DNA of 64,000 nt from an uncultured Acidobacteriota bacterium (GTDB lineage: Bacteria; Acidobacteriota; Thermoanaerobaculia; UBA5066). The stretch lies in the NCBI GenBank assembly GCA_963779415.1, contig CAVZYA010000001.1, positions 544,001-608,000 on the forward strand, written 5' to 3'. The translations under genes were made by a program, and so were the position numbers. The notes under the pieces were generated by a model that had not been told where the DNA came from, did no database searches, and saw only the letters and a list, made by a program, of their open reading frames with translations. Of this stretch, positions 4,211 through 35,725 are shown piece by piece (position 1 is the first letter of the stretch; the number at the start of each line of letters is the position of its first letter).

Positions 4211-4247
4211 ATTCCCGGCGGAGAAGAGTCGTATAGTCGTCGCCACC

Positions 4248-7908: not shown

Positions 7909-7924
7909 TGTGCGACCTTTCACA
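7909..7924. promoter_or_regulatory. CRP/FNR-type (or Rex-type) palindromic operator TGTGC-N6-TCACA
   Basis: TGTGCGACCTTTCACA, 9/10 match to TGTGA-N6-TCACA, in the divergent intergenic region near the Crp/Fnr gene. Confidence 0.6.
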
Positions 7925-7957
7925 ACCCTCTCGGAAAGGAAGCTAGACTCGCCCCGC

Positions 7958-11948: not shown

Positions 11949-11963
11949 TGGCACGTTGATTGC
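11949..11963 (+). promoter_or_regulatory. sigma54 -24/-12 promoter
   Basis: TGGCACGTTGATTGC equals the consensus TGGCACG-N4-TTGC; upstream of the redox operon and next to a divergent activator gene. Confidence 0.9.
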
Positions 11964-12006
11964 CATAGAGGACCATGCGGGACGAACCGCAGCGCGGAGG
12001 GCTCGA

Positions 12007-13398
12007 ATGGCGCTAACAACTTCCTATTACATGGAGGCGGTCGACACGAAGAACCTCCCGGAGAGGTTCCTCGAGGCATTCGCCGCGATTCTTTCTCACT
12101 CGAACTACGCCGCCGTTCTCGACCTCTATGCCCGGATGAGCACGCGATGCGGACGCTGCGCCGCGAGCTGTCCGGTCTACGAGGCCTCCTGCGATCCGCG
12201 GGACATTCCGTGCAAGAGGTCGGAGCTGCTCCTCGACGTCTTCACCCGCTACTTCACCCCTCTCGGCGCCCTCAAGGCGCGCTTCGGCACTCCCTTCACC
12301 CTCACGGAGGAGCACATCAACAGGCTGGCAGAGGATCTCTACCGCTGCACCGCCTGCCGCCGGTGCAAGCTCGAGTGCCCGCTGGGGATCGACCACGCGA
12401 TGATCACCCACCTCGGCCGCTGGGTCCTTGCGGAGGTCGGCATCATTCCGAAGGCGCTCAAGGTGGCGGTGCGGGAGCAACTGGACGGAAAGACGCACAA
12501 CACGTCGGCGATTCCCGAGGCGGCGCTGCGCGACACGTGCGAGTTCCTCACGGACGACTGCAAGGACACCTGGGGGATGAAGATCGAGTTCCCGATCGAC
12601 CGGGAGGGGTCGGAATACGTCTTCTTCCCGGCGGTATCCGATTACCTCCTGGAGCCCGACACGCTGACGGGAAACTCCGCGGTCCTCACCGCGGCCGGCG
12701 CCTCCTGGACCATCGGCTCGCGTTACTTCGACGGGATCAACTACGGCCTCTTCTACTCCGACCGGATGCTCGACCGGATCCTGCAGCAGGAGGTCGCGGA
12801 GGTCCGCCGCCTCGGGGCACGCAAGATCCTGATCGGAGAGTGCGGGCACGCCTCGCGCTCGGCCAAGTTCTTCGTCCGGACTTTCGGCGGCGGCCGGAAC
12901 GCTCCCGAGGTGGTCAACATCATGGAGTACACGCTGAGGGCGCTTCGGGAGGGGAAGCTGGCCCTTAAGGCCGGTTCGATCGGCGAGCGCGTGACGTATC
13001 ACGATCCCTGCAACATCGCCCGATCGGGCTGGGTTGTAGAACAGCCACGCGAGATCCTTCGCGCCATCTGCTCGGACTTCGTCGAGATGACGCCGCACGG
13101 CCGCGAGAACTACTGCTGCGGGGGCGGAAGCGGGACCGTCTCCATCGACGAGATCCGCTCCTTCCGGACGCTCGTCGGCGGCAAGACCAAGGCGGAACAG
13201 ATCCGCCGCACCGGCGCCACCGTCCTGGTCGCCCCCTGCGCCAACTGCAAGAAGCAGCTCCGCGAGGTCTGCGAAGACCACGGCCTCAAGGACGTCCGGG
13301 TCGTCGGGTTGCACGATCTCCTCTTGCCGGCCCTCCAACCGCCTGCGGCCATGCGCGTCGAAAAACCGGCGGCCGACGAAGCCGCGAAGGGGGCGTGA
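12007..13398 (+). CDS. HdrD-like Fe-S/CCG-domain protein (HmcF/TmcB/DsrK family)
   Basis: CxxCxxxCP and CTACRRCKLECP clusters, ECGHA, YHDPCN, CCGGG, APCANC; GGAGG RBS. Confidence 0.85.
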   Translation: MALTTSYYMEAVDTKNLPERFLEAFAAILSHSNYAAVLDLYARMSTRCGRCAASCPVYEASCDPRDIPCKRSELLLDVFTRYFTPLGALKARFGTPFTLTEEHINRLAEDLYRCTACRRCKLECPLGIDHAMITHLGRWVLAEVGIIPKALKVAVREQLDGKTHNTSAIPEAALRDTCEFLTDDCKDTWGMKIEFPIDREGSEYVFFPAVSDYLLEPDTLTGNSAVLTAAGASWTIGSRYFDGINYGLFYSDRMLDRILQQEVAEVRRLGARKILIGECGHASRSAKFFVRTFGGGRNAPEVVNIMEYTLRALREGKLALKAGSIGERVTYHDPCNIARSGWVVEQPREILRAICSDFVEMTPHGRENYCCGGGSGTVSIDEIRSFRTLVGGKTKAEQIRRTGATVLVAPCANCKKQLREVCEDHGLKDVRVVGLHDLLLPALQPPAAMRVEKPAADEAAKGA

Positions 13399-13401
13399 CG
13401 C

Positions 13402-14103
13402 GTGGACGCCTGGATCGCCCTCGCGCGGGGCCCCCTCTTTCGCATCTCCCTCGCGGTCTGCGTGCTCGGCCTTCTCTACCGTGTCGGCGTCGCCTGCTAC
13501 TCCCTCCTGCGCGCGTGGCAGAGAGCGGGAGACCGGCTCCTGCCGCTCTCCGCGATCCGCCGCGCGACCCTGGAGTGGTTGGTGCCACGCCGTCTCCTCA
13601 AGGCGAGGCCGCTCTACTCGATCGCCTCGTTCGCGTTTCACGTCGGCATCATCGTCGTGCCGCTCTTCCTCGCCGGACACGTCCTCCTCTGGCAGCGCGA
13701 CCTGCCGGTCGCCTGGCTTGTGCTCCCCGCCTTCTGGGCCGACCTCCTGACCCTCCTCGCCACGGCGGCGCTCTTCGGTGTCCTCGTCGCCCGGGCCGTG
13801 ACGAAGGAGAGCCGCTTCCTGACGCAGACGCAGGACGTCGTGGTGCTCCTCCTCCTCGCAGGGGTGCTCGTCGCCGGCTTTCTCGCATCCCATCCGGGCC
13901 TCGCTCCGTTCGACGCACGGGCGCTGCTCCTAGCCCACGTCCTCCTCGGAGATCTGGTGCTGATCCTGACGCCCTTGACCAAGATCGTGCACTGCGTCCT
14001 CTTCCCATTCATGCAGCTCGCCGGAGAGATCGGCTGGCACTTCCCCGCCGAGAGCGGCCGCCACGTGGCGCTCGCCCTCGGCAAGGAGGGTGAGCGGATA
14101 TGA
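13402..14103 (+). CDS. NarI-like membrane di-heme b cytochrome (HmcE-like)
   Basis: About 5 TM helices with paired His (FHVG...AGH; LAH...TKIVH). Confidence 0.8.
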   Translation: MDAWIALARGPLFRISLAVCVLGLLYRVGVACYSLLRAWQRAGDRLLPLSAIRRATLEWLVPRRLLKARPLYSIASFAFHVGIIVVPLFLAGHVLLWQRDLPVAWLVLPAFWADLLTLLATAALFGVLVARAVTKESRFLTQTQDVVVLLLLAGVLVAGFLASHPGLAPFDARALLLAHVLLGDLVLILTPLTKIVHCVLFPFMQLAGEIGWHFPAESGRHVALALGKEGERI

Positions 14104-14909
14104 GCGCCTGGGGCATCCTGACCGACGTTACGAAGTGCATCGGCTGCGAGGAGTGCGTCGCCGCTTGCAAGCGGACGAACGCGACCGGAGAGGACGAGCC
14201 GTGGAGCTGGCAGGGCTCACCCGGGGATCTCTCGTCGACGCGGTGGACGACGATCGTCTCCGCGCCGCGCGGACGCTCCGTCCGCGTCCACTGTCGCCAC
14301 TGCCTCGAGCCGGCCTGTGCCTCGGCCTGTCCGGTGGGAGCGCTCCGCCGGACGAAGGAAGGCGCGGTCGCTTACGACGCGGACATCTGCATGGGCTGCC
14401 GCTACTGCATGATCGCCTGCCCGTTCAAGATGACCCGCTACGAGTGGGAGTCGGCCACCCCCCGGGTCCGCAAGTGCATCCTCTGCTACGACCGGATCCG
14501 TAAAGGCGAGATCAGGGAGCCGGCCTGTACGGCCGCCTGCCCGACGAAGGCGACGATCTTCGGCGACCGGGACACCCTCCTCGCCGAAGCCCGCCGCCGC
14601 ATCGCGGAGGAGCCGGGCCGATACGTCCACCACATCTGGGGCGAGCACGAAGTGGGAGGGACCTCAGTCCTCTACCTTTCCGACGTCAACCTCTCCACGG
14701 CTGGCTGGCCCTCTTCGCTGCGCGACACTTCGTATCCGGCGCTCACGCATCCGGCCATGCACGCCGTCCCTCCCGCGTTTCTCGGCGTGGGCGCCGTGAT
14801 GTTCGGCCTCTCGTGGGTGATCGGCCGCCGGGAGCGCCTCGCCCGGGAGGGGGATCCGGAAACTCCGCCGCACGAGAAAGGCAACACGCCTCCGAAGGCT
14901 ACGCCATGA
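14100..14909 (+). CDS. 4x[4Fe-4S] electron-transfer subunit (HmcB/HybA-like)
   Basis: CIGCEECVAAC, CRHCLEPACASACP, CMGCRYCMIACP, CILC...ACTAACP; C-terminal TM; no Tat leader. Confidence 0.9.
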   Translation: MSAWGILTDVTKCIGCEECVAACKRTNATGEDEPWSWQGSPGDLSSTRWTTIVSAPRGRSVRVHCRHCLEPACASACPVGALRRTKEGAVAYDADICMGCRYCMIACPFKMTRYEWESATPRVRKCILCYDRIRKGEIREPACTAACPTKATIFGDRDTLLAEARRRIAEEPGRYVHHIWGEHEVGGTSVLYLSDVNLSTAGWPSSLRDTSYPALTHPAMHAVPPAFLGVGAVMFGLSWVIGRRERLAREGDPETPPHEKGNTPPKATP

Positions 14910-23120: not shown

Positions 23121-23981
23121 CTAGGAAGAAAAGAGAGCGGCGGCGTTTTCGAAGAGGATCTTCCGCTTCACATCGGCCGGAAGCGGGAGCGAGAGAAACT
23201 CCTCCACGTTCCGGCGCATCGACCGGACCCCCATCGAGGGCCAGTCCGTGCCCCACAGGACCCGGTCGGCAACGTCGCCGAGCCTCGGGAGGACGTCGAG
23301 AAGCCTCCTCGGCGGGATCCCCGAGACGTCGAGCCGGACGTTCGGATGCCGGCGGACCAGAAAGAAGGCCGTGTCATACCAGAGCGGCCGGCCCGCGTGA
23401 CAGAGGACGAGGGTCGTCCCGGGAAAGTCGACCGCCACGTCGTCGCACGGCATCGGGTCGGCGTGGACGTTCCGGGCTCCGGGGAATATGGACGTCCCGG
23501 TATGGATCAGGACGGGCCGCCTCGCTTCGCCGGCCAGCCGGTAGACCTCGGCGAGGGAGGGGCAATCGGTCCTGTAGGCGTTCGCCGCCAGCTCCATGTG
23601 CGGGGGGTGGATCTTGATCGCGCCGACGCGGTGGACGTCGAGGAGCCTCTTCATCTCCCCGGCGACGTCGCGCGTGTGCCGAGGATGGATTCCGCCGACC
23701 GGGACGAGACGGTCGCGGTGTCCCGCGACGTATCGGGCGATCCAGGGGTTCACGCTCGCCGTGAGGCCCATGACCTCGGGCGAGACGGAGGTGATCAGCG
23801 CGGCCCGGGCGATTCCCTCGGCGTCCATCGCCTTGAGAAGCTCGTCGGCCGACTCGCCCACCCGCGCGACGAGGTCGAGGTCTTCCCGTCCCTCCGTCAT
23901 CGCCCGCCGGGCCCCTTCCTTGAGCTGGTCGTTCGGGCCGACGTGGATGTGGGCGTCGAAAACCGGGAATGACGGCGACAC
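23121..23981 (-). CDS. Amidohydrolase_2-type metal-dependent TIM-barrel protein
   Basis: DAHIH, KIHP, IHTG, CHAG, WGTDWP. Confidence 0.85.
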   Translation of the reverse strand: MSPSFPVFDAHIHVGPNDQLKEGARRAMTEGREDLDLVARVGESADELLKAMDAEGIARAALITSVSPEVMGLTASVNPWIARYVAGHRDRLVPVGGIHPRHTRDVAGEMKRLLDVHRVGAIKIHPPHMELAANAYRTDCPSLAEVYRLAGEARRPVLIHTGTSIFPGARNVHADPMPCDDVAVDFPGTTLVLCHAGRPLWYDTAFFLVRRHPNVRLDVSGIPPRRLLDVLPRLGDVADRVLWGTDWPSMGVRSMRRNVEEFLSLPLPADVKRKILFENAAALFSS

Positions 23982-24066: not shown

Positions 24067-26872
24067 ATGCGAACCCTCTTCCTGCCGCCGACCTACCAGG
24101 ACTCCGCGGAATCGGGTCGGCTCATCCTGCGCGACGGATCGACGGCATTCATCCGCCCGGCAGAGCCGTCGGACTTCGAAGAGCTGCGGGAGTTCTTTCG
24201 CCAGCTCTCGCCCGAGTCGAAGCGCCGCCGCTTCTTCTCCATCGCCGACCCGGCGAAGGCGCTCCTCGAACGGCAGTGCGATTCCTCCAATCCCCGCGTC
24301 CAGCTGACTCTGATCGTCATCCGGATCGTGAGCGGCGCCTCGCGGATCATCGCGACCGCCTCCTACGTCGCGCGGGACGAGACGAGCGCCGAGGTCGCCT
24401 TCGCGGTCGACGACGAGTTCCAGGGACGAGGCCTCGGAGGCCTCCTTCTCGAGCGCCTGGCCCTCATCGCCGCCCGGTACGGCTTTGTCCGCTTCTGGGC
24501 CGTGACGCGTCTCGAGAACGCCCTGATGCTCGACACGTTCCGCCGCTCGGGCTTCCCGCTCCACACGAAGGTCGAGGACGAGTGTGTCGAGATCGACTTC
24601 TCCGTCGCCCAGAGCGAGGACAGCGTCAGTCACTCGGAGTCGCGGGACCGTCTCTTCACCACGGCCTCGCTCCACCCCCTGTTCCGTCCCCGCGCCGTCG
24701 CCCTCATCGGCGCCTCACGCGACGTCTCCAGCATCGGCTGGCGCATCCTCGACGGGCTCGTTCAGAGCGGCTTTCACGGCCCGGTCTACGCGGTGAACCC
24801 GAATGCGACGCACGTCCACTCGCTGCCGGCCTACTCTTCGGCCCGCGAGATCCCGAAGGGGACCGATCTCGCCATCGTGGCGATCCCGCGCGAGGGCGTG
24901 CTGGATGCCGTGGACGATTGCGCCGCCGCCGGCGTCCGCGCCCTCGTCGTCGTCACGGTCGGCTTTCTGGACAGCTATTCCGGAGGACGTGACCTGCAGG
25001 AGAAGCTCCTCGAGAGGGTTCGCGGCCACGGGATGCGCCTCGTCGGTCCCAACTCGATGGGCGTCGTCAACACCGATCCGGAGATCCGGCTCAACGCCTC
25101 GGTCTCCCCCGTCCTGCCTCCACGCGGGAGCGTGGCGATGTCGTCCCAGAGCGGCGTCCTCGGCATGGCGATGCTGGCTCTCGCGCGGCAGCGCCATGTC
25201 GGCGTCTCGACCTTCATCAGCGTCGGCAACAAGGCCGACATCTCCGGCAACGACCTTCTGCAGTACTGGCAGGGGGACGATGCGACACGCGTCATCCTTC
25301 TCTATCTGGAGTCCTTCGGAAATCCGCGCCGCTTCGCCCGGATCGCGCGGGTCGTGAGCCGGGAAAAGCCGATCGTCGTCGTGAAGGCGGGACCGGCCCC
25401 GGAGCCCGCCCGATCCGCCGCCGCGACGCTCGTCGCGGGCGAAGCCGTCGTGAACGCGCTCTTCCGTCAGACGGGGGTCATCCGGGCCGACACGCTGGAC
25501 GAGATGTTCGACCTCGCGGCCGCTCTCGACCGGCAGCCTCTTCCGGCAGGGCGCCGCGTCGCGATCCTCTCGGACGGGAGCGGTCCCGGCATCCTCTGCG
25601 CGGGCGCCTGCGAGGCGGCCCGTCTGACCGTGCCGCCGCTCTCGGAGACGACGGCGGAGCGGCTCGCGACTTTCCTCCCCTCCGGCACGCCGATCGGCAA
25701 CCCCCTGGAGCTCGTCTTCTCGCCGACTCCGGAGCCGTACCGGCAAGCCCTCGAGACGCTCCTCAAGGCTCCCGAAGTGGACGCCCTCATCGCGATTCAC
25801 ACGCCGCTCGACGAGAGCGGTTCGGAGGCCATGGTGGAGGCGATCCGGCAGGGAGCCGCGGCGGCGCGCGCCTCGGGAGGCGACGGCAAGCCGGTCCTCG
25901 CGTGCCTCCTCGCGAAGGAGGACGCCGGTGCGCCGGTGGTTCTCGGAGAGTCGAGCATTCCGACGTATGCGTTTCCGGAGTCGGCCGCGCGGGTTCTCGG
26001 GAAGGTGGCCGCTTACGCGGAGTGGCGCGCCGGCTCCGCACGGGGTCATTCCCGACTTCGACGACATCGACCCGGCGGCCGCCCGTTCGATCTGCCGGAA
26101 AGCGATCGAGGAGCGCGGAGCCGGACCTCTCACTTCGGACGAGGCGAGGGCGGTCCTTCAGGCCATGCACCTTCCCGTCGCTCCGGGCGGGGTCGCCCGG
26201 ACGCCCGACGAGGCCGTGGCGCTCGCCCGGGGAATCGGATTTCCCGTCGCCGTCAAGCTCGCTTCTCCCCGGATCCGCCAGAAGACCGAGAAGGGAGCCG
26301 TTCACCTGAACGTGGAGGAGGAGATCGGGGTCCGGCTGGCTTTCGGGGCGATCCGAAAGACGAGGGAAGCGGATCACAACCCGGAGGCGATGGAGGGAGT
26401 GCTGGTCCAGCCGATGGCCGGAACCGACGTCGAGGTGATGGTGAGAGTCGTGGAGGACCCTCTCTTCGGGCCTCTCGTCGTCTTCGGTCTGGGCGGGATC
26501 CACGTCGAGGTGATCGCCGATGCGGGTCTGCGCGTGACGCCGCTGACCGATCGCGCCGCCCAGGCGATGGTCCGGGAGATCCGGGGTTATTCCCTCCTCG
26601 AGGGGTACCGGGGGCATCCTCCCGCCGACGTTTCGGCCATCCACGACGTCCTTCTGCGCGTCTCTCGCCTCGTCGAAGAGGTCCCCGACATCTCGGAGGT
26701 CGATCTGAGCCCGATCTTCGTCGGGCCCCCCGGCGGAGGGTGCTACATCTTCGACTCGCGAATCGACGTGGCTCTCCCCCGGAAGGACCGGGCGGCCCGC
26801 TACACCGTTCCCCCCCTTCCCGTCGTCCGCAAGGAAGCGGTCGCCATCTCCCCCGCCGAGGCGCCGAGGTAG
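24067..26872 (+). CDS. pat: Pat-type protein lysine acetyltransferase (N-terminal GNAT + inactive ACD-like domains); +1 frameshift near 26032
   Basis: LRDGS..IRP, LSPES..RRFF, AEVAFAV.D.FQGRGLG; ACD scaffold lacking both His (no SHT; QKTE instead of HKSD); C-terminus in ORF 25928..26872. Confidence 0.85.
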
Positions 26873-26884
26873 CGAGGAGCTTTC

Positions 26885-27331
26885 ATGACCGATTTCCCTG
26901 ACCACGACTGGCTCTGCCGGAGAATCGTCGAAGACTCCCCGGTGGCGATTCTTTTTGCCGACCGGGAAGGAACGATCCGCCTCTGGAACGCGGGGGCCGA
27001 GGCGATGTTCGGCTACCTGGCAGACGAGGCGCTCGGCCAGTCGATGGACCTGATCATCCCAGAGCGCCAGAGGCCCCGGCACTGGGAAGGCTGGAAGAAG
27101 GTGATGGCGACCGGAGTCACGCGGTACGGCCGCGAGGTGCTGGCGGTTCCGGCCATGCGAAAGGACGGCTCGCGAATCTCCATCGAGTTCAATATCCTCC
27201 TGCTGCGGACGGGCGACGGCGGGATCCCGGGCGCGGCCGCCCTGATTCAGGACGTGACGGCCCGGTGGCAGCGAGAGAAAGAGATGAAGGCGCGCCTCGC
27301 GGCCCTCGAAGCCGGGGCGCGGGAGGGCTGA
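26885..27331 (+). CDS. Stand-alone PAS domain protein
   Basis: WNAGAEAMFGY..EALGQS.DLIIP, RKDGSRI; C-terminal coiled coil. Confidence 0.85.
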   Translation: MTDFPDHDWLCRRIVEDSPVAILFADREGTIRLWNAGAEAMFGYLADEALGQSMDLIIPERQRPRHWEGWKKVMATGVTRYGREVLAVPAMRKDGSRISIEFNILLLRTGDGGIPGAAALIQDVTARWQREKEMKARLAALEAGAREG

Positions 27332-27332
27332 G

Positions 27333-28070
27333 ATGGATTTTCGGCGGGTGAACGATCTGAAGGCGCCGGACGGCCATGACATTCCGGCCTTTCTTCTCGC
27401 GCCAGCCTCGCCGCGCGGCGGCGCCGTCGTCTGTCACGGCTACGGGGGGTCGAAGGAGCAGATGCTCGGAATCGCGACGAGCATCGCCGAGAAGGGCGCC
27501 GCCGCGCTCGCGATCGACCTCTGCGGACACGGCGAGAACAGGGCGCCGATCGGCCCGGCCATGCGCGAAGAGCTGGAGGCGGCCGTCGCCTTCGCCCGGC
27601 GGTTCGGCCGGACGGGCGCCATCGGCCACAGCCTGGGGGGAAGGCTGGCGCTCATGTCGTCGGCGGACGTCATGGTGGCGATGTCGCCGTCCGTCATGGT
27701 GCAAATGTCTCCCCAAGGGAAGTGGATGTTCGAGAACCTCCCGAGCCCCGGCGTCCGCGAGCCCTATTCCGGCTACGTCCTCGAGCTGCTGGAGAAGCTG
27801 GGACCGGTTCCGCCGCACGGGCGCCCCTGCCTTCTCCTCTACTCCGAAAGGGACATCCAGGGGCTTCTGGACGGCGCGGCGGGCCTCCTCTCCCAGCTCT
27901 CCGGTGCCGAGAAGCAGCTCGTCACCCAGGACATCCGTCCCGACGTGCAGCACGAGAGCGGCCTGGTCCGGTACCTGCCGCGCTGGTTCAACCACATCGA
28001 GCTCAAGTCCAACGCTTCGGCTTCCGCCACGGCGGGCTCCTGGCTCGCCGGTCGCCTCGCCGGAGCCTGA
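27333..28070 (+). CDS. Alpha/beta hydrolase
   Basis: HGYGG, D..GHG, nucleophile elbow GHSLG. Confidence 0.8.
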   Translation: MDFRRVNDLKAPDGHDIPAFLLAPASPRGGAVVCHGYGGSKEQMLGIATSIAEKGAAALAIDLCGHGENRAPIGPAMREELEAAVAFARRFGRTGAIGHSLGGRLALMSSADVMVAMSPSVMVQMSPQGKWMFENLPSPGVREPYSGYVLELLEKLGPVPPHGRPCLLLYSERDIQGLLDGAAGLLSQLSGAEKQLVTQDIRPDVQHESGLVRYLPRWFNHIELKSNASASATAGSWLAGRLAGA

Positions 28071-28092: not shown

Positions 28093-28869
28093 ATGACGTA
28101 CGAGAACCTCACCTTCGAAACGGAGGGCCCGATCGCCGTCGTGACGCTCAATCGCCCGACCCGGCGAAACGCCCTTTCGCTGGGGCTCATGCGGGAGCTT
28201 CTCGACTGTCTGACGGAGATCGGCCGAGACCGGCAGCTCCGCACCGTGATCCTCGCCGCCGCCGGGAAGGTCTACAGCTCGGGACACGATCTCTCCGAGC
28301 TGGTCGGGAGGGACCTCAACGCCTACCGGGAGATCTTCGACGTCTGCGCCGACCTGATGACGAGGATCCAGGCGATTCCGCAGCCCGTCATCGCGGAAGT
28401 CCAGGGAGTCGCCACCGCGGCCGGCTGCCAGCTCGTGGCGACGTGCGACATCGCGGTGGCGGCCGAAGAGGCCTGGTTCGCCACGCCGGGCGTCAAGACC
28501 GGGCTATTCTGCACGACGCCGATGGTCGCGCTCTCCCGGGCGATCGGGCGCAAGCGCGCGCTCCAGATGCTCCTGACCGGAGATCCGGTCGACTCGAAGA
28601 CGGCGGCCGAATGGGGACTCGTCAACAGCGTCGTCCCCGCGGGGTCGCTCCGCGCCGAGACGCGGAAGCTCGCGGCGAAGATCGCCGAGGCGAGCCCCGT
28701 CACGGTCGCCATCGGAAAGCAGGCCTTTTACTCGCAGATCGACCTCGATCAGCCGAAAGCCTATGCCTACGCAAAGGAGATCATGGCGATGAACTCCCTA
28801 GCGATGGACGCCCAGGAGGGAATCTCAGCGTTCCTCGGAAAGAGGGCGGCCTCCTGGACGGGACGATAG
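28093..28869 (+). CDS. Enoyl-CoA hydratase/crotonase family protein
   Basis: LNRP..RNAL, SSGHDL, ATAAGCQLVATCD, EGISAFLGKR. Confidence 0.9.
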   Translation: MTYENLTFETEGPIAVVTLNRPTRRNALSLGLMRELLDCLTEIGRDRQLRTVILAAAGKVYSSGHDLSELVGRDLNAYREIFDVCADLMTRIQAIPQPVIAEVQGVATAAGCQLVATCDIAVAAEEAWFATPGVKTGLFCTTPMVALSRAIGRKRALQMLLTGDPVDSKTAAEWGLVNSVVPAGSLRAETRKLAAKIAEASPVTVAIGKQAFYSQIDLDQPKAYAYAKEIMAMNSLAMDAQEGISAFLGKRAASWTGR

Positions 28870-28884
28870 AAAGGAGACACTTCG

Positions 28885-29190
28885 ATGGTCACGTTCGAGT
28901 ACCGGTTCGACGTCCTCCCCGGAAAGCTGCGGGACTACGAGAGGCATACGAAGGGCGCCGGAAAGGACATCTGGCTGAGGTTCCGCGGAGTCAAGACCGT
29001 CCGGGTCTACAAGAGCATGCTCGGCGGGTCGTCGCCGCAGCGCGTGGTCCAGGTCGACCTGGAGAGCCTCGCGGCGCTCGAGAAGATCCTGACCGACCCG
29101 GGCTTCCGGAAGGTCAAGGAGAACTTCCACAAGATCGTCACGAACGTCACGGACTCGCTTCTCGTCCAGGTGAGCGAAAAGAAGAAGTAG
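28885..29190 (+). CDS. Small hypothetical protein, possible dimeric alpha-beta barrel
   Basis: AGGAG RBS, typical codon usage, beta-alpha-beta pattern (FDVLPGK..YE). Confidence 0.65.
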   Translation: MVTFEYRFDVLPGKLRDYERHTKGAGKDIWLRFRGVKTVRVYKSMLGGSSPQRVVQVDLESLAALEKILTDPGFRKVKENFHKIVTNVTDSLLVQVSEKKK

Positions 29191-29196
29191 CCGCGG

Positions 29197-29709
29197 TTAC
29201 GGGCGCGGCTTCTTTCCCGTCGGGCGCGGGCGTCGCCTGACGCCCGCGCCCGACGAGAGCGCCCGGACGACGGCGCCCCAGTTGTCGAACCACGTTTCGA
29301 ACGCGGCCCGGAGCTGGGATCGTCCCTGCTCGTCGGCCGCGGCGCGCAGGGCCTCCACCACCGCGGCCGTGGACGGGCGAAGGCGGCGTTCGCCCTTCCG
29401 GGTCAGCGCCACGTGGACGAAACGGCGATCCGTCGCGGAGCGCGTCGTGCGAACCAGACCGGCCCGCTCCATCCGCCGGACGAGGGCGGAGGTCGTGTTC
29501 ATCGTGCCGAACGTCTGGCGCGCCAGATCGCCGATCGTCAGAGGGACCCCCGAGGGGTTGCCGGCCAGCGTCAGGAGGACGAACTGCTGGGCGGAGGTGA
29601 GTCCGCCGTCGGTCGGTTCGGTCGTGATCGTCCGGCGAACCGACTCGAAGAACCGCCTCAGGTGGGCCATCGAGCGGTAGATTTCCGCGAGGCGCCGCTG
29701 CGTGGTCAT
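29197..29709 (-). CDS. MarR family regulator
   Basis: LTSAQQFVL, TIGDLA, LVRRMERAGLV, DRR..VALT.KG. Confidence 0.85.
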   Translation of the reverse strand: MTTQRRLAEIYRSMAHLRRFFESVRRTITTEPTDGGLTSAQQFVLLTLAGNPSGVPLTIGDLARQTFGTMNTTSALVRRMERAGLVRTTRSATDRRFVHVALTRKGERRLRPSTAAVVEALRAAADEQGRSQLRAAFETWFDNWGAVVRALSSGAGVRRRPRPTGKKPRP

Positions 29710-29870
29710 TACGCGCGATTATAGGGAGGAGGGACCGGGCGATTCCGCTTGACTCGGGGCGGCACCGGACACCTAAAATCATTCCACGTGACGAACAGTC
29801 GACGACACGTACTATTCGGCCCACAGCCCGACACGGGACTCCTCGCCGGAGAGGAATCCCCTTTCGTGTC

Positions 29871-30782
29871 GTGATGGCTCTCCCCGCTCTTCTCGCGCCC
29901 GCCGGAAGTCCCGCGGCCGTCCGCGCGGCGCTCGACGCGGGGGCCGACGCCGTCTACGTCGGCCTCAAGGGCTGGAGCCGGGGGGGCTCCCGAGGCGAGC
30001 TCGACTGGGACGAGCTGGTCTCCTCCCGGAGCGAGGCCGCCGCGGCGGGGCGGAGCCTTCAGGTGGCGCTCAACATCATCCCCAAGGCCCCGGAGCGCGC
30101 CCGGCTCTTCGAGCGAATCCCCGCGCTCCTCGATCTGGGGATTCGAGAAGTCATCGTCAACGACATCGGGATTCTCGCCACGCTGCGCCGCGACTTTCCG
30201 GACCTTCTCCTGACGGCCAGCATCGGCTGCGGGGCACGGACGGCCGCGGACGTCGCGTTCTTCCGGGATCTGGGCGCCGACGCCGTCGTCCTGCCGGGGA
30301 CGTTGAGCCCCGCGGAGATGAACGAGATCCGGAGCGTCCGGGGGATCTCGATCGAGATCATGATCCACATGGTCGAGGAGTTCGTCCTCCTCGGAAAGTG
30401 CTGGATGCCGAGCTACGTGAGCCTGAAGCCGTCGCGGCTTCCGGACGCCGGGGGGCTTCGGCAGACCGGAAGCATGAAGCGAGGGGGCGTCGGGGCCTGC
30501 TTCCGGGTCTGTCAGGAGCCATGGGAGCTCTACGCCTGCGGGCGGCACCTCGAGACGCGCTTCCTTCCGGGACGACAGATCAGCCGGATTTCCGAGGTCC
30601 AGACCTTCGCGGACGCGGGCGTGGACGTCCTGAAGCTCCAGGGGCGGAGTCTTCCCCCGGAGCTTCTCGCGCCTCTCGTCCGGAGCTACCGGGAGGCGAT
30701 CGACGCCCGGGACGTTCCGGCCACGGATGAAGAGATCGCTTCGCCGGCCCTGCCGGCGGCCTGGACGGTGGTCGGACGATGA
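29871..30782 (+). CDS. U32 peptidase-family Fe-S protein 1 (UbiU/TrhP-like, first Cys replaced by Glu)
   Basis: LLAPAG, GADAVYVG, HMVEEFVLLGKC, GACFRVC, LKLQGR. Confidence 0.85.
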   Translation: MMALPALLAPAGSPAAVRAALDAGADAVYVGLKGWSRGGSRGELDWDELVSSRSEAAAAGRSLQVALNIIPKAPERARLFERIPALLDLGIREVIVNDIGILATLRRDFPDLLLTASIGCGARTAADVAFFRDLGADAVVLPGTLSPAEMNEIRSVRGISIEIMIHMVEEFVLLGKCWMPSYVSLKPSRLPDAGGLRQTGSMKRGGVGACFRVCQEPWELYACGRHLETRFLPGRQISRISEVQTFADAGVDVLKLQGRSLPPELLAPLVRSYREAIDARDVPATDEEIASPALPAAWTVVGR

Positions 30783-31762
30783 CGGCGACTGGCAAATCAG
30801 GAGGAGCATTGAGCTCGTTCGAGCTGAACACGACGATCGCGAACCTCCGGGACCTCCGTGAGTCGGACCTGACCGACTACGACGGGATCTACCTGGGCGA
30901 CATCTACTGCCGGCTCTACGAAGCGAACTTCCTCGAGCAGCTCGGAGACCTCAGGGAAGGGCTCCGCATCCTGCGGGATCAGGGGAAGCGCGCCTACGTG
31001 ACGACCTACGCCGGGCCACGCAACGACTTCCTTCCCAAGGTGATGAGGATGCTGGAAGCCGCCGCCGCGGCGGGAGCCGAGGCGGTCGAGATCCACAACA
31101 TGGGGATCCTGCGGATGGCTCACGAGTCGTTCCCGGGGCTCCCGTTGCACGTCGGCGGCTTCGCGAACGTCTACACCGCCGCGGGCGCCGAGGTCCTGCG
31201 CGGTCTCGGGGCCGTGCGGTTTACGCCCAACTACGAGCTGAGCCTGGACGAGATCCGGGAGATGACGGACGCCGGCGCCGCTCCCATGGAGCTCCTCGTG
31301 CACGGGAAGATGCCTCTCGGGATCTCGGACTACTGCTTCCTCCTGGAATACGAGGAGAAGTGGGGCATCAAGTGTCCCGACCTCTGCCAGAAGGAGCTGT
31401 TCCTCAAGCAGGGCGAGTGGGCCATGAAGTCGCTCGGGAAGGGGATCCTGAGCGGCAAGGACGTCTGCATGCTGGAGCACCTGCCGCGTCTCCTCTCCGA
31501 GGGCCACCGGCACTTCCGGATCGAGGCCATTTCGGAGAGCCCTGCGTACCGGCGCGAGGTCGCGGCGGTCTACCGCGCGGCGCTCCAGGGGGCCGCCGGC
31601 GGCGAGGGCGAGGTCGACGAAGCCTGGTGGGAGACGTTGCGGCGCCATGCGAGGATCGGTCTATGCAACGGGTTCTATTTCGGCAAGAGCGGAATGGACT
31701 ATTCGGGAATCCGGCCGGGGGCGATGGGGTCCCTTCCGACGATCTCCCGTCTGGAATCCTAG
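30779..31762 (+). CDS. U32 peptidase-family Fe-S protein 2 (UbiV-like)
   Basis: IYLGDIYC, HGKMPLGISDYC, CPDLC, FRIE, CNGFY; ATGA overlap. Confidence 0.85.
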   Translation: MTATGKSGGALSSFELNTTIANLRDLRESDLTDYDGIYLGDIYCRLYEANFLEQLGDLREGLRILRDQGKRAYVTTYAGPRNDFLPKVMRMLEAAAAAGAEAVEIHNMGILRMAHESFPGLPLHVGGFANVYTAAGAEVLRGLGAVRFTPNYELSLDEIREMTDAGAAPMELLVHGKMPLGISDYCFLLEYEEKWGIKCPDLCQKELFLKQGEWAMKSLGKGILSGKDVCMLEHLPRLLSEGHRHFRIEAISESPAYRREVAAVYRAALQGAAGGEGEVDEAWWETLRRHARIGLCNGFYFGKSGMDYSGIRPGAMGSLPTISRLES

Positions 31763-31785
31763 AAAGGGTCGAGGAGGGCGGAGTC

Positions 31786-32754
31786 ATGGTCGAGCTTCTG
31801 GCGCCGGCAGGCAATCTTCCGATGGTCGAGGCCGCCCTGGCGGGCGGCGCGAACGCGATCTACGTCGGCGCCCGCGGGTGGAGTCGGCGGCGCGACCGTT
31901 ACGAGCTGGCGGACGACGAGGTGAAGGCCGCGATCGGCATCGCCCACGGGGGCGGCGCGAAGCTGCGGGTGGCCATCAACACCAACATGCAGTCCCACGA
32001 GATTCCGCCCCTGCTCCGGAAGATGGAGCGCTTCGTCGCCTGGGGGGTGGACGGAGCGATCATGACCGACATCGGCGCGATCGCGGAGGTTCACCGGAAC
32101 TTCCCCGACCTCACCCTCCACGCCAGCATCGGGGCCAACATCCTCAACGACGAGGACGTCCGCTTCTATCGTTCGCTCGGCGTTTCCCAGGTCGTGGCGG
32201 ACACGAAGCTGACGCTCACGGAGCTGGCGTCCCGGAAGGGGCGGATCGACGTCGGAATCGAGATCCTGATCCACGCCAACAAGTGCTACACCTACCTCGG
32301 AAAATGCTGGATGTCCCCCTATCACCGGCTGGAGCGGACGACGGACCCCTTCGGAAAGGACATGTTCAAGGGAAGTCCCAACCGCGGCGGCCTCGACTAC
32401 CGTGTCTGTCTGGAATCGTGGGACCTTTTCCACGGTGACGAGCCGTGGGAAAAGGGCGTGGCCTTGAAGAACGACGCCTTCTTCCTCCTGGAAGACATCC
32501 CCCACCTGATCCACCTCGGCGTCCATTGCCTGAAGGTGCAGGGGCGGGAGTATCCGGTCCCCCTCGTGGAGCGAATCGTCCGGTTCTACCGGGATCTGAT
32601 CGACGCGTGTCTGGCTTCCCCGAAGGGCGAGCCCTTCGACTGTTCGCCATGGCACTCCCGCCTCGAGGCCATTCAGTCGGGACGCGACGCGGCCCGAGAG
32701 GAGGGAACCCGCCTCCTCCTGATCGAGGCCCGGCAACCGGTGCCGGCGCCCTGA
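31786..32754 (+). CDS. U32 peptidase-family Fe-S protein 3 (UbiU/TrhP-like, third Cys replaced by Asp)
   Basis: ELLAPAGN, GANAIYVG, LHAS, HANKCYTYLGKC, NRGGLDYRVC, LKVQGR; GAGGAG RBS. Confidence 0.85.
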   Translation: MVELLAPAGNLPMVEAALAGGANAIYVGARGWSRRRDRYELADDEVKAAIGIAHGGGAKLRVAINTNMQSHEIPPLLRKMERFVAWGVDGAIMTDIGAIAEVHRNFPDLTLHASIGANILNDEDVRFYRSLGVSQVVADTKLTLTELASRKGRIDVGIEILIHANKCYTYLGKCWMSPYHRLERTTDPFGKDMFKGSPNRGGLDYRVCLESWDLFHGDEPWEKGVALKNDAFFLLEDIPHLIHLGVHCLKVQGREYPVPLVERIVRFYRDLIDACLASPKGEPFDCSPWHSRLEAIQSGRDAAREEGTRLLLIEARQPVPAP

Positions 32755-32761
32755 CACGGGT

Positions 32762-33958
32762 TTGAGCCGCTCCCGGCGTTCCGTATCGGGCGCGATCCTG
32801 GCGCTCGGCCTTCTCTCGGCGCACTGCTCCCGGGATAAGGGGAAAGGGATCGAGATTCGGGTCGGAGAGATCGACTCGTTGAGCGGCGCCCTGGCAGCCC
32901 AGGGGACGGCGGTTCATGAAGGGGTCGTCTTCGCCGTTTCCGAGGTCAACGCACGGGGAGGCCTTCGGGGCCGTCCCGTGATCCTGCTGACCCGCGACGA
33001 CAGCGGCCAGCCGGACGCCGCCACGAACGCGGCCCACGACCTCGCCGTCCGCGAGAGCGTGAGCGCGCTGGTCGGGGGTTACGTCGACTCGATCGTCGGC
33101 CCGGCGGCCCAGGTCGCCGAGAGGGAGCGCGTTCCGTATGTCGCGGCCTCCTCCCTGGATCAGCGTCTCACGCAGCGCGGAAACGCCTGGTTCTTCAGGA
33201 TCAGCCGCCTGGAGCCGTTCGTTCAGGCCACGACCGCCGTCCCGCTCGAAATCCTCCCCGCACGAAACGTCGCGATCCTCTATTCGTCGACGCCGGGGGC
33301 CACCCAGCTCGCCAGGCTCCAGAAGGAGCGGCTCGAGGCCCGGGGCGTGATCGTTTCTTCGTTCGACAGCTTCCAGACGGGGACCCCCGACTTCATCCCG
33401 CTTCTCACCCGCGGGAAGTCGGCCGGGGCGACCCTCCTCCTCATGGACGGCTTCTTCGCCGACAACCTCGTCCTCCTGCGGCAGCTCCACGGATCGTCCG
33501 GGCCCGTCCTGCCCGTCGTCGGCGCGTTCGGCATGGAGTTCCCCGCCCTCATCAGGCAGCTCGGCCCTCTCGGCGAGGGCGCGATCGGAGCGATCGTCTG
33601 GGAGCCCGGGATGTCGCTCTCGGGGGACGTGGAAGGGAGCCGCGCGTACGAGACCGGCTTCGAGAGGCAGTTCGGCCACCCCCCGGCGCCGCTCAGCATG
33701 TATGGCTACACGGCGATGCGGGCGGTCCTGGCCGCGCTGGAGCAGTCCGTCGCGGTCGGCACGACGCCGGAACGGGAAGCCGTCCGGGACGCGCTTCGAA
33801 AGACAGATCTCCTCCTCCCTTTGGAGCGCCTGAAATTCGACGAGCACGGAGATCCGCTCTTCTACCAGGTCGGCATTTTCCAGATCCAGGAGGGGCGGCA
33901 CGTGCTCCTCTATCCGCGCGAGAGAGCCACCGGGGAGCCCGTCCGGCCGAAGTCCTGA
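32762..33958 (+). CDS. LivJ-like ABC substrate-binding lipoprotein (orphan)
   Basis: Lipobox-like LSAHC, VGEIDSLSG, VNARGGLRGRPV.L..DD; TTG start. Confidence 0.8.
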   Translation: MSRSRRSVSGAILALGLLSAHCSRDKGKGIEIRVGEIDSLSGALAAQGTAVHEGVVFAVSEVNARGGLRGRPVILLTRDDSGQPDAATNAAHDLAVRESVSALVGGYVDSIVGPAAQVAERERVPYVAASSLDQRLTQRGNAWFFRISRLEPFVQATTAVPLEILPARNVAILYSSTPGATQLARLQKERLEARGVIVSSFDSFQTGTPDFIPLLTRGKSAGATLLLMDGFFADNLVLLRQLHGSSGPVLPVVGAFGMEFPALIRQLGPLGEGAIGAIVWEPGMSLSGDVEGSRAYETGFERQFGHPPAPLSMYGYTAMRAVLAALEQSVAVGTTPEREAVRDALRKTDLLLPLERLKFDEHGDPLFYQVGIFQIQEGRHVLLYPRERATGEPVRPKS

Positions 33959-33974
33959 GACCGGAGGCGGGACC

Positions 33975-35108
33975 TCAGGTCCAGTACTGGCGGGCGAGGT
34001 CGAGCAGCCGCTCGGCCACCTGCCGGTTGCGGTGCGAAACCTCGTAGCGGTTCGGGACGTCCGGACGCGCCGTCAGGGGATCGTGAAGGCTCTCCGGCAG
34101 CGTCTCGCCGACGGCCCCCTGCCATCTTTCCCTCCAGGGCTCCGGAACCCCGGACACGATCGGAAGATCGTGCAGCAGGAGATAGAGGATGGCCCAGATC
34201 CGCGGGGCCGCTCCGAACGAGTAGCCGCCCCCCAGCGTGAAGAGAACCCTCCCCGAGGCAAACAGCTCCGCCCACTCGAGGATCTGCCGGAAGAGAGCTT
34301 CGTAGTCCCGCGTCGTCAGCATCAGATCGGCGAGCGGATCGTCGAAATGCGCGTCGGCCCCGGCCTGGACGACGAGGACGTCGGGCCGGAAGTGCCGGAG
34401 CGCCGGCGGGAGCACCTGTTCGAAGACCTCGCGATAGCTCTCGCCCGCGGTGAACGGCTGGAGGGGCACGTTGAGCTTCAGGCCGCGGCCCGCGCCGGCG
34501 CCGAGTTCCCGGATCTCGCCGCTTCCCGGAAAGAGAAACTGCCCCGACTCGTGAAGGCTGAGGGTCATCACGCCCGGGTCTTCGTAGAGGATCTCCTGGA
34601 CGCCGTTTCCGTGATGGACGTCGATGTCGATGTATGCGGTCCGGAGGCCCCTCCGGGTGAACAGGTCGATGGCGACCGCGAGATCGTTGTAAATGCAGAA
34701 GCCCGAAGCGGAGCTTCGCCCCGCGTGATGGAGTCCCCCACCCAGCTGAAGGACCCGCTTTGCATTCCCTTCCGCGATGAGACGGGCCCCGAGCAGGGTC
34801 CCGCCCACGTGCAACCGGGCGGCCTCGTCCATGCCGGGGAAGGCGGGCGTGTCCTGGGTACCGAGCCCGTACACCGCCGCGTCGGGAACCGTTCCGCCCG
34901 CGCTCAGCTCCTCCACGCGCTGCACGTAGGCGTCGGCGTGGACGGCGAGAAGGTCCTCTCTCGTGGCGGGCTCCGGCTCGACCGACTCCACGGAATGGCC
35001 GAGCGCAGAGACGAGATCGAGAGTCATCTCGACACGGAGCGGGCTGAACGGATGCTTTTCGCCGAAAGAGTATTTCCGGTAGGCCGGGGCGAAGATCACC
35101 GCGGGCAC
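33975..35108 (-). CDS. acuC: Acetoin utilization protein AcuC (Zn-dependent deacetylase)
   Basis: HPFSPLR, GGLHHA, ASGFCIYND, YIDIDVHHGNGVQ, QAGADAH.DDPL, LGGGY. Start GTG 35108 or 35099. Confidence 0.9.
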   Translation of the reverse strand: MPAVIFAPAYRKYSFGEKHPFSPLRVEMTLDLVSALGHSVESVEPEPATREDLLAVHADAYVQRVEELSAGGTVPDAAVYGLGTQDTPAFPGMDEAARLHVGGTLLGARLIAEGNAKRVLQLGGGLHHAGRSSASGFCIYNDLAVAIDLFTRRGLRTAYIDIDVHHGNGVQEILYEDPGVMTLSLHESGQFLFPGSGEIRELGAGAGRGLKLNVPLQPFTAGESYREVFEQVLPPALRHFRPDVLVVQAGADAHFDDPLADLMLTTRDYEALFRQILEWAELFASGRVLFTLGGGYSFGAAPRIWAILYLLLHDLPIVSGVPEPWRERWQGAVGETLPESLHDPLTARPDVPNRYEVSHRNRQVAERLLDLARQYWT

Positions 35109-35725
35109 GGCTTCTCCGGGGGCCAGAGGACCTGGAAGCCGCCTTTCCGCAGGTCCTGCGCCAGATAGGCGGTCTCCATCGAACCGATCCGCAGCACGGT
35201 GCGAATGGCACTCGGCCCCTCCGGATAGGAGAGGATCGAATGGATGTTCAGCTTCCGTTCGCTGAGGAAGCCGGCGAGGCGTGCCAGCTCGCCGGGCTGA
35301 TCCGGAAGGCGCACGTCGAGGCGGCCCGACGGCTTGTCGACGCCCGTCATCCGGATGAGGGCGTCGAGCAGATCGAGGCCGGTCACGATCCCGATCAGGC
35401 GCCCGTCGTCCAGGACGGGAAGGCAGCCGATCTTCCGCTCGCGCATGACGCGCGCGGCGTCCTCGATCGGATCCGAGGGATCCGCCGTCAGCGGGCGGGA
35501 ACACATGACGCCGGAGACCCGGCTGCCGGGGGAGAACGGGTTCGGCACGAGGACGCTCGTCGCCAGCCTCAGATCGCGGTCCGTGATGACGCCGACGAGC
35601 CTTCCTTCGTCCAGGACGGGCAGATGCCGGATTCCCTTCTCCCGCATCGTTCGGTATGCGTCTTCAAGGGTGGTGTCCGCGGAGACGGTCACGGCCGGAC
35701 TCCGCATGATGTCCCGTACCAACAT
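35096..35725 (-). CDS. acuB: AcuB (CBS pair + ACT)
   Basis: IRHLPV, ITDRDLR, IGCLPV, ACT LPDQPGELA; overlaps acuC. Confidence 0.9.
   Translation of the reverse strand: MLVRDIMRSPAVTVSADTTLEDAYRTMREKGIRHLPVLDEGRLVGVITDRDLRLATSVLVPNPFSPGSRVSGVMCSRPLTADPSDPIEDAARVMRERKIGCLPVLDDGRLIGIVTGLDLLDALIRMTGVDKPSGRLDVRLPDQPGELARLAGFLSERKLNIHSILSYPEGPSAIRTVLRIGSMETAYLAQDLRKGGFQVLWPPEKPCPR

Follow-up and report, generated by a model that had tools for sequence, protein, structure and literature searches.

A conserved operon of three U32 genes with Glu and Asp in Fe-S ligand columns in an uncultured Acidobacteriota bacterium

Introduction

The genome of an uncultured Acidobacteriota bacterium (Thermoanaerobaculia, UBA5066; assembly GCA_963779415.1) contains three consecutive genes for U32 proteins, here named U32_1, U32_2, and U32_3, and two of the three proteins carry an acidic residue in a column where characterized relatives have a cysteine ligand of an iron-sulfur (Fe-S) cluster. 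What does such a triad do, and are the substitutions a fixed property of it? The genes lie in a stretch of 64,000 nucleotides (contig CAVZYA010000001.1, positions 544,001 to 608,000 of the forward strand; G+C content of about 68%), which was analyzed as a whole and is called the window below. A sequence-only reading of this DNA had proposed an anaerobic hydroxylase of three subunits, or of two alternative heterodimers, acting on an imported, inducing small molecule. In the literature, the mechanism of the U32 hydroxylases is described as unsettled with regard to the role of the cluster and the electron acceptor, and only a minority of the twelve subfamilies have been given a function. Our analysis gives about an even chance to the view that the triad is one conserved, mobile U32 Fe-S system that would act as an O2-independent hydroxylase in an acyl-coenzyme A (acyl-CoA) pathway.

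Results

The triad and its Fe-S ligand positions

The three tandem genes run in the same direction, as had been observed, and all of their products matched PF01136 (Peptidase_U32; gathering cut-off, 22.4 bits). U32_1 (29871-30782, plus strand) encodes a UbiU-like subunit of 303 amino acids (aa) (94.3 bits), U32_2 (30779-31762, plus strand) a UbiV-like subunit of 327 aa (127.6 bits), and U32_3 (31786-32754, plus strand) a UbiU-like subunit of 322 aa (124.2 bits). The start of U32_2 overlaps the stop of U32_1 by 4 nucleotides (nt), U32_3 follows after a gap of 23 nt and is preceded by GGAGG, and the gene of a Peripla_BP_6 solute-binding protein with a signal peptide (32762-33958, plus strand; PF13458, 156.1 bits) begins 7 nt past the U32_3 stop. 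Because of the overlap and the two short gaps, the four plus-strand genes likely share one transcript.

The ligand columns were read from an alignment of the three proteins with UbiU, UbiV, TrhP, and RlhA of Escherichia coli. Mutagenesis identified C169, C176, C193, and C232 as the ligands of E. coli UbiU and C39, C180, C193, and C197 as those of E. coli UbiV (10.1101/587956). U32_1 has Glu170 in the Cys1 column, followed by C177, C210, and C214 at Cys2, Cys3, and Cys4, and U32_3 has C167 and C174 at Cys1 and Cys2, Asp204 in the Cys3 column, and C208 at Cys4. The four cysteines of UbiU are therefore incomplete in both proteins, with Glu first in U32_1 and Asp third in U32_3, and their fourth cysteine is of the Cx3C type, whereas that of UbiU is distal. 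U32_2 retains four cysteines, C44, C186, C199, and C203, with the x12 and x3 spacing of the UbiV-type arrangement C...Cx12Cx3C. Its C44 was aligned to C39 of UbiV, so that the first cysteine of the UbiV pattern (CXnCX12CX3C) stands upstream of the U32 domain, and position 1 within the domain has no cysteine, as in UbiV. U32_1 and U32_3 are 37% identical and have the motifs GWSR, LGKCWM, and RGG in common. Between ligands 2 and 3, both also have roughly 15 inserted residues, among them GS-x-[KN]RGG.

Conservation of the triad and the carboxylates

A scan of one genome per species returned 87 stretches encoding a relative of U32_3, of which 80 were kept. The conservation counts refer to these 80 related loci and the window, with fewer rows where a gene was missing or incomplete. 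By record title, the loci come from Thermoanaerobaculia, other Acidobacteriota, Terriglobales, Methylomirabilota/NC10, Rokuibacteriota, and Thermoplasmata. In U32_3, C167, C174, D204, and C208 were all present in 81 of 81 rows. E170 of U32_1 was found in 69 of 71 rows, the exceptions being the two Thermoplasmata rows (L079 and L049), which have Gln, and C177, C210, and C214 were present in all 71. Wherever a row extends over the four cysteines of U32_2, they are present (71 to 74 of 76 rows; gaps in incomplete rows make up the remainder). The order U32_1-U32_2-U32_3 was the same in all 70 loci that hold the three genes. Ten loci lack U32_1, and in each of them what is retained starts no more than about 110 nt from a contig end. 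Conservation is highest in U32_3, which has 64 to 90% identity to the window copy over all loci and long invariant runs around the ligands.

These results confirmed the Glu at Cys1 of the first gene, the Asp at Cys3 of the third, the four UbiV-type cysteines of the second, and the motifs common to the first and third, all of which had been noticed in the sequence-only reading. The orthologues were inspected for cysteine at the two substituted positions, and they keep E170 and D204 at the frequencies given above. The carboxylate swaps and the triad are fixed features. The same reading had also called the swaps complementary, as if genes 1 and 3 completed each other, and no result obtained here supports that part.

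Two loci labelled Anaeromyxobacteraceae (L022 and L025) and one labelled Acidithiobacillales (L026) have a triad with 81 to 84% identity and Thermoanaerobaculia-type synteny, with a MarR gene in L022 and L025 and with binding-protein, Hist_deacetyl, and CBS genes in L026. The labels likely reflect mis-binning, and because of their synteny these loci were not counted as separate phyla. Separately, U32_2 has two further cysteines, C230 in 76 of 76 rows and C296 in 75 of 76, the latter within the motif LCNGFYFG. A comparable motif, CNGYW, was seen by eye close to the C terminus of E. coli UbiV.

The wider clade bears on whether the carboxylates hold iron. A search of 1.84 billion cluster representatives returned 8804 proteins at E <= 0.001 and 85 at E <= 1e-30, and the ligand patterns were compared in 37 representatives of 280 to 420 aa among the matches listed. 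Fifteen of them had Cys at all four ligands, seven had Glu at ligand 1, six had Asp, and eight had Q, N, H, P, T, S, or G, while one showed the C-C-D-C pattern and is a U32_3 orthologue. A residue other than Cys (D, E, Q, N, H, P, T, S, or G) thus stands at ligand 1 in 21 of the 37, which makes a non-thiolate ligand 1 a habit of the whole clade, and not a special property of this operon. Asp at ligand 3, as far as the aligned sequences go, is peculiar to the U32_3 family. The variability of ligand 1 suggests a dispensable thiolate at this position and fits the alternative that U32_1, U32_3, or both are scaffolding or regulatory paralogues with no cluster or with a [3Fe-4S] cluster, or that a relocated cysteine serves as the ligand, so that no carboxylate-ligated site exists. 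The near-invariance of an additional cysteine of U32_1, C120 (69 of 71 rows), and the fact that the ligand positions themselves have moved between UbiU and UbiV (10.1101/587956) point in the same direction. However, each family has its carboxylate fixed (D204 in all rows, E170 in all but two), and the strong conservation of U32_3, with invariant stretches at the ligands, argues against decay. U32_3 also has an extra cysteine, C248, but Thr or Val replaces it in 11 of 81 rows, so it is not an obligate ligand. With these points on both sides, we regard an explanation without a carboxylate-ligated site as unlikely.

Placement among the known U32 families

The scores of the triad against profile hidden Markov models (HMMs) of the known families were far under the respective cut-offs. 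The UbiU profile (NF047963; cut-off, 440 bits) gave 96.8 bits for U32_1 and 124.3 bits for U32_3, and the UbiV profile (NF047965; cut-off, 275 bits), which is the best NCBIfam match of U32_2, gave 81.7 bits for that protein. The best score of the TrhP profile (NF011996; cut-off, 534 bits) was 139 bits, for U32_3, whose best NCBIfam match it is, and the matches span positions 2 to 186 only of its 449, the U32 proteins being 303 to 327 aa long versus about 450. PF01136 was the only domain matched in U32_1, U32_2, and U32_3, in none of which the C-terminal part of TrhP or DUF3656 was found; PF01136 together with DUF3656 is the defining feature of RlhA (PMC5727448). In a maximum-likelihood tree of 58 rows with one named reference for each known U32 family, U32_1 fell into an 'ECCC' clade (Shimodaira-Hasegawa-like approximate likelihood ratio test [SH-aLRT], 99) and U32_3 into a clade of its own (SH-aLRT, 99). 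Both lie inside a 39-row clade of U32 proteins of about 300 aa (SH-aLRT, 98), which excludes E. coli UbiU, the nearest named relative, as well as TrhP and RlhA, which are further out. U32_2 was placed on the UbiV side. As each family has a single named reference, the position outside the known clades rests on the tree and the HMM scores jointly. On these sequence criteria the three proteins, which are not nested among UbiU, UbiV, or TrhP, are not orthologues of any of them.

A closer candidate may be the PepU32#6 group of Kimura 2017 and Pelosi 2019 (reference D5MIQ1_9BACT), a family without the conserved four-Cys motif, described by the latter as having two mildly and three poorly conserved cysteines (10.1101/587956). 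Triad paralogues could resemble this when pooled, and, compared by description alone, the triad families could be PepU32#6 seen together. The descriptions available in part make no mention of a three-gene operon, carboxylates, or a CoA context.

Two of the named families suggest functions of their own. In the first, the triad would serve a UbiU/UbiV-type O2-independent hydroxylation for a quinone or another prenylated cofactor, with the UbiU-like subunit duplicated. The UbiV-type ligands of U32_2, its best match to UbiV, and the position of E. coli UbiU as nearest named relative of the U32_1/U32_3 clade are in favor of this explanation, whereas the scores far below the UbiU and UbiV cut-offs are not. 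In addition, one E. coli UbiT query gave no match at E <= 0.01 in the triad's own genome (92% complete), where the best UbiA_proteo match was 128.6 bits against a cut-off of 275.45 bits. This function appears quite unlikely when the gene neighborhood and distribution given below are also considered. In the second, the triad would be a TrhP- or RlhA-like RNA hydroxylase for tRNA or rRNA modification, as the TrhP match of U32_3 might suggest. Against this stand the length of about 300 to 330 aa with PF01136 alone and the best CmoA match in the own genome, which reached 21.5 bits against a cut-off of 193.3 bits. We consider RNA modification very unlikely, again together with the distribution and the neighbors of the genes.

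The family name itself suggests a true peptidase or collagenase, and relatives are indeed annotated as "putative protease" or "collagenase-related protease." Cluster look-ups of the relatives returned generic names only, and these annotations are propagated family labels. The conserved features of the triad are the Fe-S ligand motifs common to UbiU, UbiV, TrhP, and RlhA, a signal peptide was seen by eye in none of the three proteins, and the genomic context is one of acyl-CoA genes. A proteolytic function is hardly credible on this evidence.

Predicted pairing of U32_2 and U32_3

The three proteins were folded together, each with a 29-row alignment and with U32_3 as the scored partner. The interaction prediction score from aligned errors (ipSAE) was 0.75, versus 0.01 for the best of three controls. 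Among solved complexes, 58 of 80 attain this mark, as do 2 of 110 mismatched pairs, a calibration that is rough here owing to our own alignments and the three chains. At least 80% of the contacts agreed between runs, and the predicted local distance difference test (pLDDT) value of the partner was at least 85. On the U32_2 side, the contacts listed involve residues 178-187 and 205-211, which surround C186 and C203, as well as residues 292-306, close to C296; on the U32_3 side, they involve residues 168-176 and 207-217, which surround C174 and C208. Because these contacts lie in the cluster loops, the cluster regions of the two proteins would face each other. The model supports a U32_2-U32_3 heterodimer, and this predicted pair resembles the reported UbiU-UbiV heterodimer (10.1101/587956), a further point for the quinone explanation.

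All of the confident contacts listed were between U32_2 and U32_3, and none involved U32_1. A multisubunit enzyme, as had been proposed, is plausible in view of the modeled U32_2-U32_3 pair. The control in which U32_2 was swapped for an unrelated protein and U32_1 was kept gave 0.01, which speaks neither for nor against a direct U32_1-U32_3 pair. Single-sequence and profile searches of the PDB returned no solved relative by sequence (0 matches), and by fold the U32_3 model matched best the monomeric 5D88 (the U32 protein Mk0906). As no similar solved complex was found, the passing score is unlikely to reproduce a structure that the predictor had already seen.

Genomic context across phyla

The sequence-only reading had treated a MarR regulator and the binding protein as parts of the system. 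The MarR-family gene (29197-29709, minus strand; PF12802, 41.7 bits) is divergent from the U32 genes, and 161 nt separate it from the four plus-strand genes. Among the 80 loci, a MarR gene was present in 25, all with Thermoanaerobaculia-type synteny, and the binding protein in 16, again with this synteny only. Both are thus lineage specific, and the pattern suggests that the operon acquired them in this lineage. The imported inducing molecule is likewise an argument at the level of this lineage, and the neighbors found across phyla are acyl-CoA genes.

Genes for an AMP ligase (27 of the 80 loci), a CoA-transferase (21), two families here called c13 (22) and c14 (22), a PAS protein (23), and an alpha/beta hydrolase (27) accompany the triad. 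The CoA-transferases belong to family III and occur in two copies. In the Terriglobales locus L042, 12 codirectional genes encode FlK, the three U32 proteins, ABM, Amidohydro_2, two CoA_transf_3 proteins, c13, c14, an AMP-binding protein, and PAS. The NC10 loci have the order CoA_transf_3, c13, c14, AMP-binding, IclR, and the three U32 genes, and the Thermoplasmata loci have the ligase, transferases, c13, and PAS near the triad. In Terriglobales, the gene immediately preceding the triad is a FlK homologue (105.1 bits for the L042 copy), to which the window copy is 41% identical by tblastn, and an Amidohydro_2 homologue (family c26, 43% identity) adjoins the triad there, the L042 copy also matching PF04909. 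The PAS protein is 57 to 76% identical in Thermoanaerobaculia-type, Terriglobales, and Thermoplasmata loci, and the loci with the alpha/beta hydrolase include NC10, at 44 to 48% identity. The CoA-transferase, ligase, FlK, Amidohydro_2, ABM, and PAS neighbors lead away from quinone synthesis and RNA modification; the former would be expected beside prenyltransferases and methyltransferases in place of CoA-transferases, a ligase, and a thioesterase, and the latter fits poorly with genes that stand within metabolic clusters beside MarR or IclR regulators. From these cross-phylum neighbors we infer that the triad belongs to a pathway for a CoA-activated organic acid, possibly an aromatic one.

In the window, the genes directly upstream of the triad encode a stand-alone PAS protein of 148 aa (26885-27331, plus strand; PF08448, 60.4 bits), an alpha/beta hydrolase of 245 aa (27333-28070, plus strand; PF12697 and PF00561), and an enoyl-CoA hydratase/isomerase (28105-28869, plus strand; PF00378, 195.2 bits), the last of which is present in Thermoanaerobaculia-type loci. 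They are followed by p101, a 101-aa protein with no Pfam or NCBIfam match (28885-29190, plus strand), which occurs in 18 of the 80 loci. No similarity was detectable between p101 and the Terriglobales ABM protein, so the two were not taken as equivalents. Further upstream in the same genome are an Amidohydro_2 gene at about 6 kb (23121-23981, minus strand; PF04909, 117.7 bits), a FlK-type acyl-CoA thioesterase gene at about 25 kb (4167-4658, plus strand; PF22636, 106.3 bits), an AMP ligase gene at about 38 kb (60% identical), and two CoA-transferase genes with c13 and c14-like genes at about 47 kb.

The c13 and c14 genes always follow the CoA-transferase pair (L036:3259-4347; L042:13522-14556; G000:C1:526908-527655). 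The c13 proteins are about 125 to 140 aa long and have a zinc-ribbon-like N terminus of the form CxxC...CxxC, and the c14 proteins share a conserved core of about 124 aa, in which a single Cys is invariant; some lineages add an N-terminal domain rich in Cys. Neither family had a Pfam or NCBIfam match, and the Atlas returned unnamed clusters only; its thioredoxin-like leads for c14, at 0.79, were under the evidence level. A role of c14 as a redox partner was considered and dropped, the core alignment having a single invariant Cys. In the triad's own genome (G000), an AAA/ClpB-like ATPase gene and a ThiF-family gene (C1:531418-534636; L087:13418-16636) separate the CoA-transferase/c13/c14 genes from the AMP ligase gene, with several open reading frames without a family match around them.

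Distribution and transfer

The triad accounts for all PF01136 matches in its own genome (4.36 Mb, 92% complete), and in five other triad-bearing genomes it is again the only full U32 set, which is the main point in favor of an RNA-modifying role. A U32_3 orthologue (E <= 1e-90) was found in 3 of 301 sampled genomes of the phylum, a frequency that is odd for a respiratory cofactor. In the Thermoplasmata loci L079 (genome G305, contig C4) and L049, U32_3 is 72 to 75% identical to the bacterial copies. The G305 contig that bears the triad also encodes S19e and L15e of the archaeal ribosome, so the transfer between domains is real unless the contig is chimeric. The patchy distribution and the transfer are more in keeping with an accessory metabolic module than with a modification enzyme of the housekeeping kind, which also weighs against RNA modification. 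By record titles alone, the family was judged to inhabit uncultured lineages of soil, peat, and groundwater. Nine sequencing runs were listed as containing the sequence, each with a share of at most 0.19 and none of them an RNA run.

Other features of the window

A scan of 28800-34300 for promoters and terminators returned no promoter-like site and one terminator-like site (3.3 expected by chance), a result with no bearing on where the operon begins or ends. The region between the MarR gene and U32_1 has one weak inverted-repeat pair, which overlaps the U32_1 start, and no operator is proposed. In the Peripla_BP_6 protein, the residues L-S-A-H-C lead to a candidate lipobox Cys; they fit poorly with the usual lipobox, and its assignment as a lipoprotein is unsure. 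No permease or ATPase genes adjoin the Peripla_BP_6 gene, and the next gene, on the opposite strand, is of the Hist_deacetyl family (33978-35102, minus strand). This gene and the following CBS-domain gene (35096-35725, minus strand) are syntenic with the triad in Thermoanaerobaculia-type loci.

A second Hist_deacetyl-family gene lies at 7910-9805 (plus strand), and the window encodes two nucleoside diphosphate-forming (NDP-forming) acyl-CoA synthetases. The first of these (24478-26872, plus strand; CoA_binding_2 and Succ_CoA_lig domains) spans two reading frames: by tblastn, intact homologues (about 676 aa) align to it in two pieces, and the frame changes near 26035. A frameshift, a split gene, or an error in sequencing could each explain this. 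The N-terminal extension of this synthetase is GNAT-like by eye. The second (4667-6697, minus strand; ATP-grasp_5, Succ_CoA_lig, and CoA_binding) is tail to tail with the FlK thioesterase gene. The Hist_deacetyl genes and the acyl-CoA synthetases together hint at acyl-lysine regulation. Finally, three genes at 11956-14909 (plus strand) encode a CCG plus Fer4_8 protein of 480 aa (HdrD/DsrK-like), a membrane-protein-like product of 233 aa, and a Fer4_11 protein of 269 aa, and the trio resembles a membrane-bound redox complex.

Discussion

The observations behind the sequence-only reading are confirmed, and its interpretation is partly supported, with the emphasis shifted from the MarR regulator and the binding protein to a CoA-linked module. 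For the mechanism, U32_2 would be a UbiV-type subunit with an all-Cys [4Fe-4S] site, and U32_1 and U32_3 would be diverged UbiU-type subunits, each with three Cys and a carboxylate (Glu at position 1 and Asp at position 3, respectively). By homology, every subunit probably binds a [4Fe-4S] cluster. U32_2 and U32_3 are predicted to pair like UbiV and UbiU, with the cluster loops of both at the interface, and U32_1 may form an equivalent pair with U32_2 or be a third subunit. U32_1 and U32_3 could then be alternative or successive catalytic partners, to which U32_2 would relay electrons. The reaction would be an O2-independent, probably prephenate-dependent hydroxylation, by homology with UbiU-UbiV, TrhP, and RlhA; prephenate is the oxygen donor of UbiUV (PMC10990095), and a review has raised an IspH-like mechanism for U32 proteins. 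The carboxylate-bound iron may provide an exchangeable site for the substrate or the oxygen donor, or the carboxylate may tune the cluster. The substrate acid would be activated to a CoA ester and later released by the thioesterase, and the Amidohydro_2 protein perhaps decarboxylates it. In this lineage, MarR may control the operon, and the binding protein may supply or sense the compound. The MarR regulators CouR, FerR, and BadR sense acyl-CoA thioesters (PMC10458429).

Hydroxylase activity and site-differentiated clusters are suggested by homology. A more specific version is possible but doubtful: the triad would be an O2-independent hydroxylase of a new class, acting on CoA-activated, probably aromatic acids. 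In it, a single UbiV-like protein would transfer electrons for two UbiU-like catalytic subunits, each of these would have a naturally site-differentiated [4Fe-4S] cluster with substrate or prephenate at its Glu- or Asp-bound iron, and the genes would form a mobile cassette that passed from bacteria to Thermoplasmata.

Several points weigh against a hydroxylase of the acyl-CoA pathway with carboxylate-ligated iron. Ligation of iron by Glu170 and Asp204 is putative, and C120 of U32_1 could be a relocated ligand, as seen in UbiU and UbiV. The AlphaFold monomer of U32_3 has a mean pLDDT of 73.1, with values below 50 over residues 165-232, the Fe-S region, whose geometry is unreadable. Direct hydroxylase activity of UbiUV, TrhP, and RlhA is described as unproven in vitro (PMC10990095). 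As for the pathway, the CoA genes of the window are not adjacent to the triad and lie 6 to 50 kb from it, and the local CoA-transferase, c13, and c14 copies are only 32 to 48% identical to those of other phyla. In the phylum sample, c13 turned up in two of the 3 triad-positive genomes and also in two of the 298 others, so the link is not obligate. The AMP ligase scored 351 bits against a cut-off of 375 bits for the benzoate-CoA ligase family, and its scores for fatty-acid and acetate ligases were similar. In addition, since the triad is the only U32 set in six genomes, a housekeeping role is conceivable on paralogue grounds.

Among known systems, UbiU-UbiV is similar in having adjacent genes for two types of U32 subunit, with the N-terminal Cys and Cx12Cx3C of UbiV in U32_2 and the UbiU-type in-domain motif in U32_1 and U32_3, and in forming a heterodimer, which here is predicted, with the cluster loops at the interface. 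The triad differs from it in having three genes instead of two, in the replacement of one Cys ligand by Glu (U32_1) or Asp (U32_3), in the GS-x-[KN]RGG insert of about 15 residues, in HMM scores of 82 to 124 bits against cut-offs of 275 to 440, and in its position beside CoA genes and not ubi genes, with no UbiT found by the E. coli query. TrhP (YegQ) and RlhA (YdcP) have the PF01136 core in common with the triad, and their Cx6C...Cx3C framework is recognizable in U32_1 and U32_3. However, the triad is without the C-terminal extension or DUF3656, has one non-Cys ligand, and falls into separate groups of the tree; the identity of U32_1 to these proteins is 28 to 29%.

Carboxylate ligation has precedents outside the family. 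The cluster of IspG has a Glu ligand. In E. coli MnmA, a [4Fe-4S] cluster is held by DxxC+C, in place of the CxxC+C of other MnmA proteins (PMC8053098). As in the triad, relatives differ there by Cys versus Asp or Glu; the MnmA and IspG proteins still bind [4Fe-4S], and their iron without a thiolate is reactive or exchangeable. The folds and chemistry of MnmA and IspG are unrelated to those of U32 proteins, and ligation by Glu or Asp is putative in the triad. The literature searched, which did not reach the U32 subfamily supplements of PMC5727448 and of the Pelosi paper, contained no U32 protein tied to a CoA-dependent pathway and no three-gene U32 operon.

The triad family should be of interest to researchers on U32 proteins and Fe-S enzymes. 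Two paralogues in which a thiolate is naturally replaced at different ligands are a ready probe of which iron matters, and the predicted heterodimer has an interface formed by the cluster loops themselves. The conserved context of CoA ligase, CoA-transferase, thioesterase, and Amidohydro_2 genes narrows the search for a substrate, and the anoxic turnover of plant-derived acids in the host lineages is poorly understood. If the proposed function is true, the triad would be the first U32 enzyme in small-molecule catabolism and would extend U32 chemistry beyond quinones and RNA.

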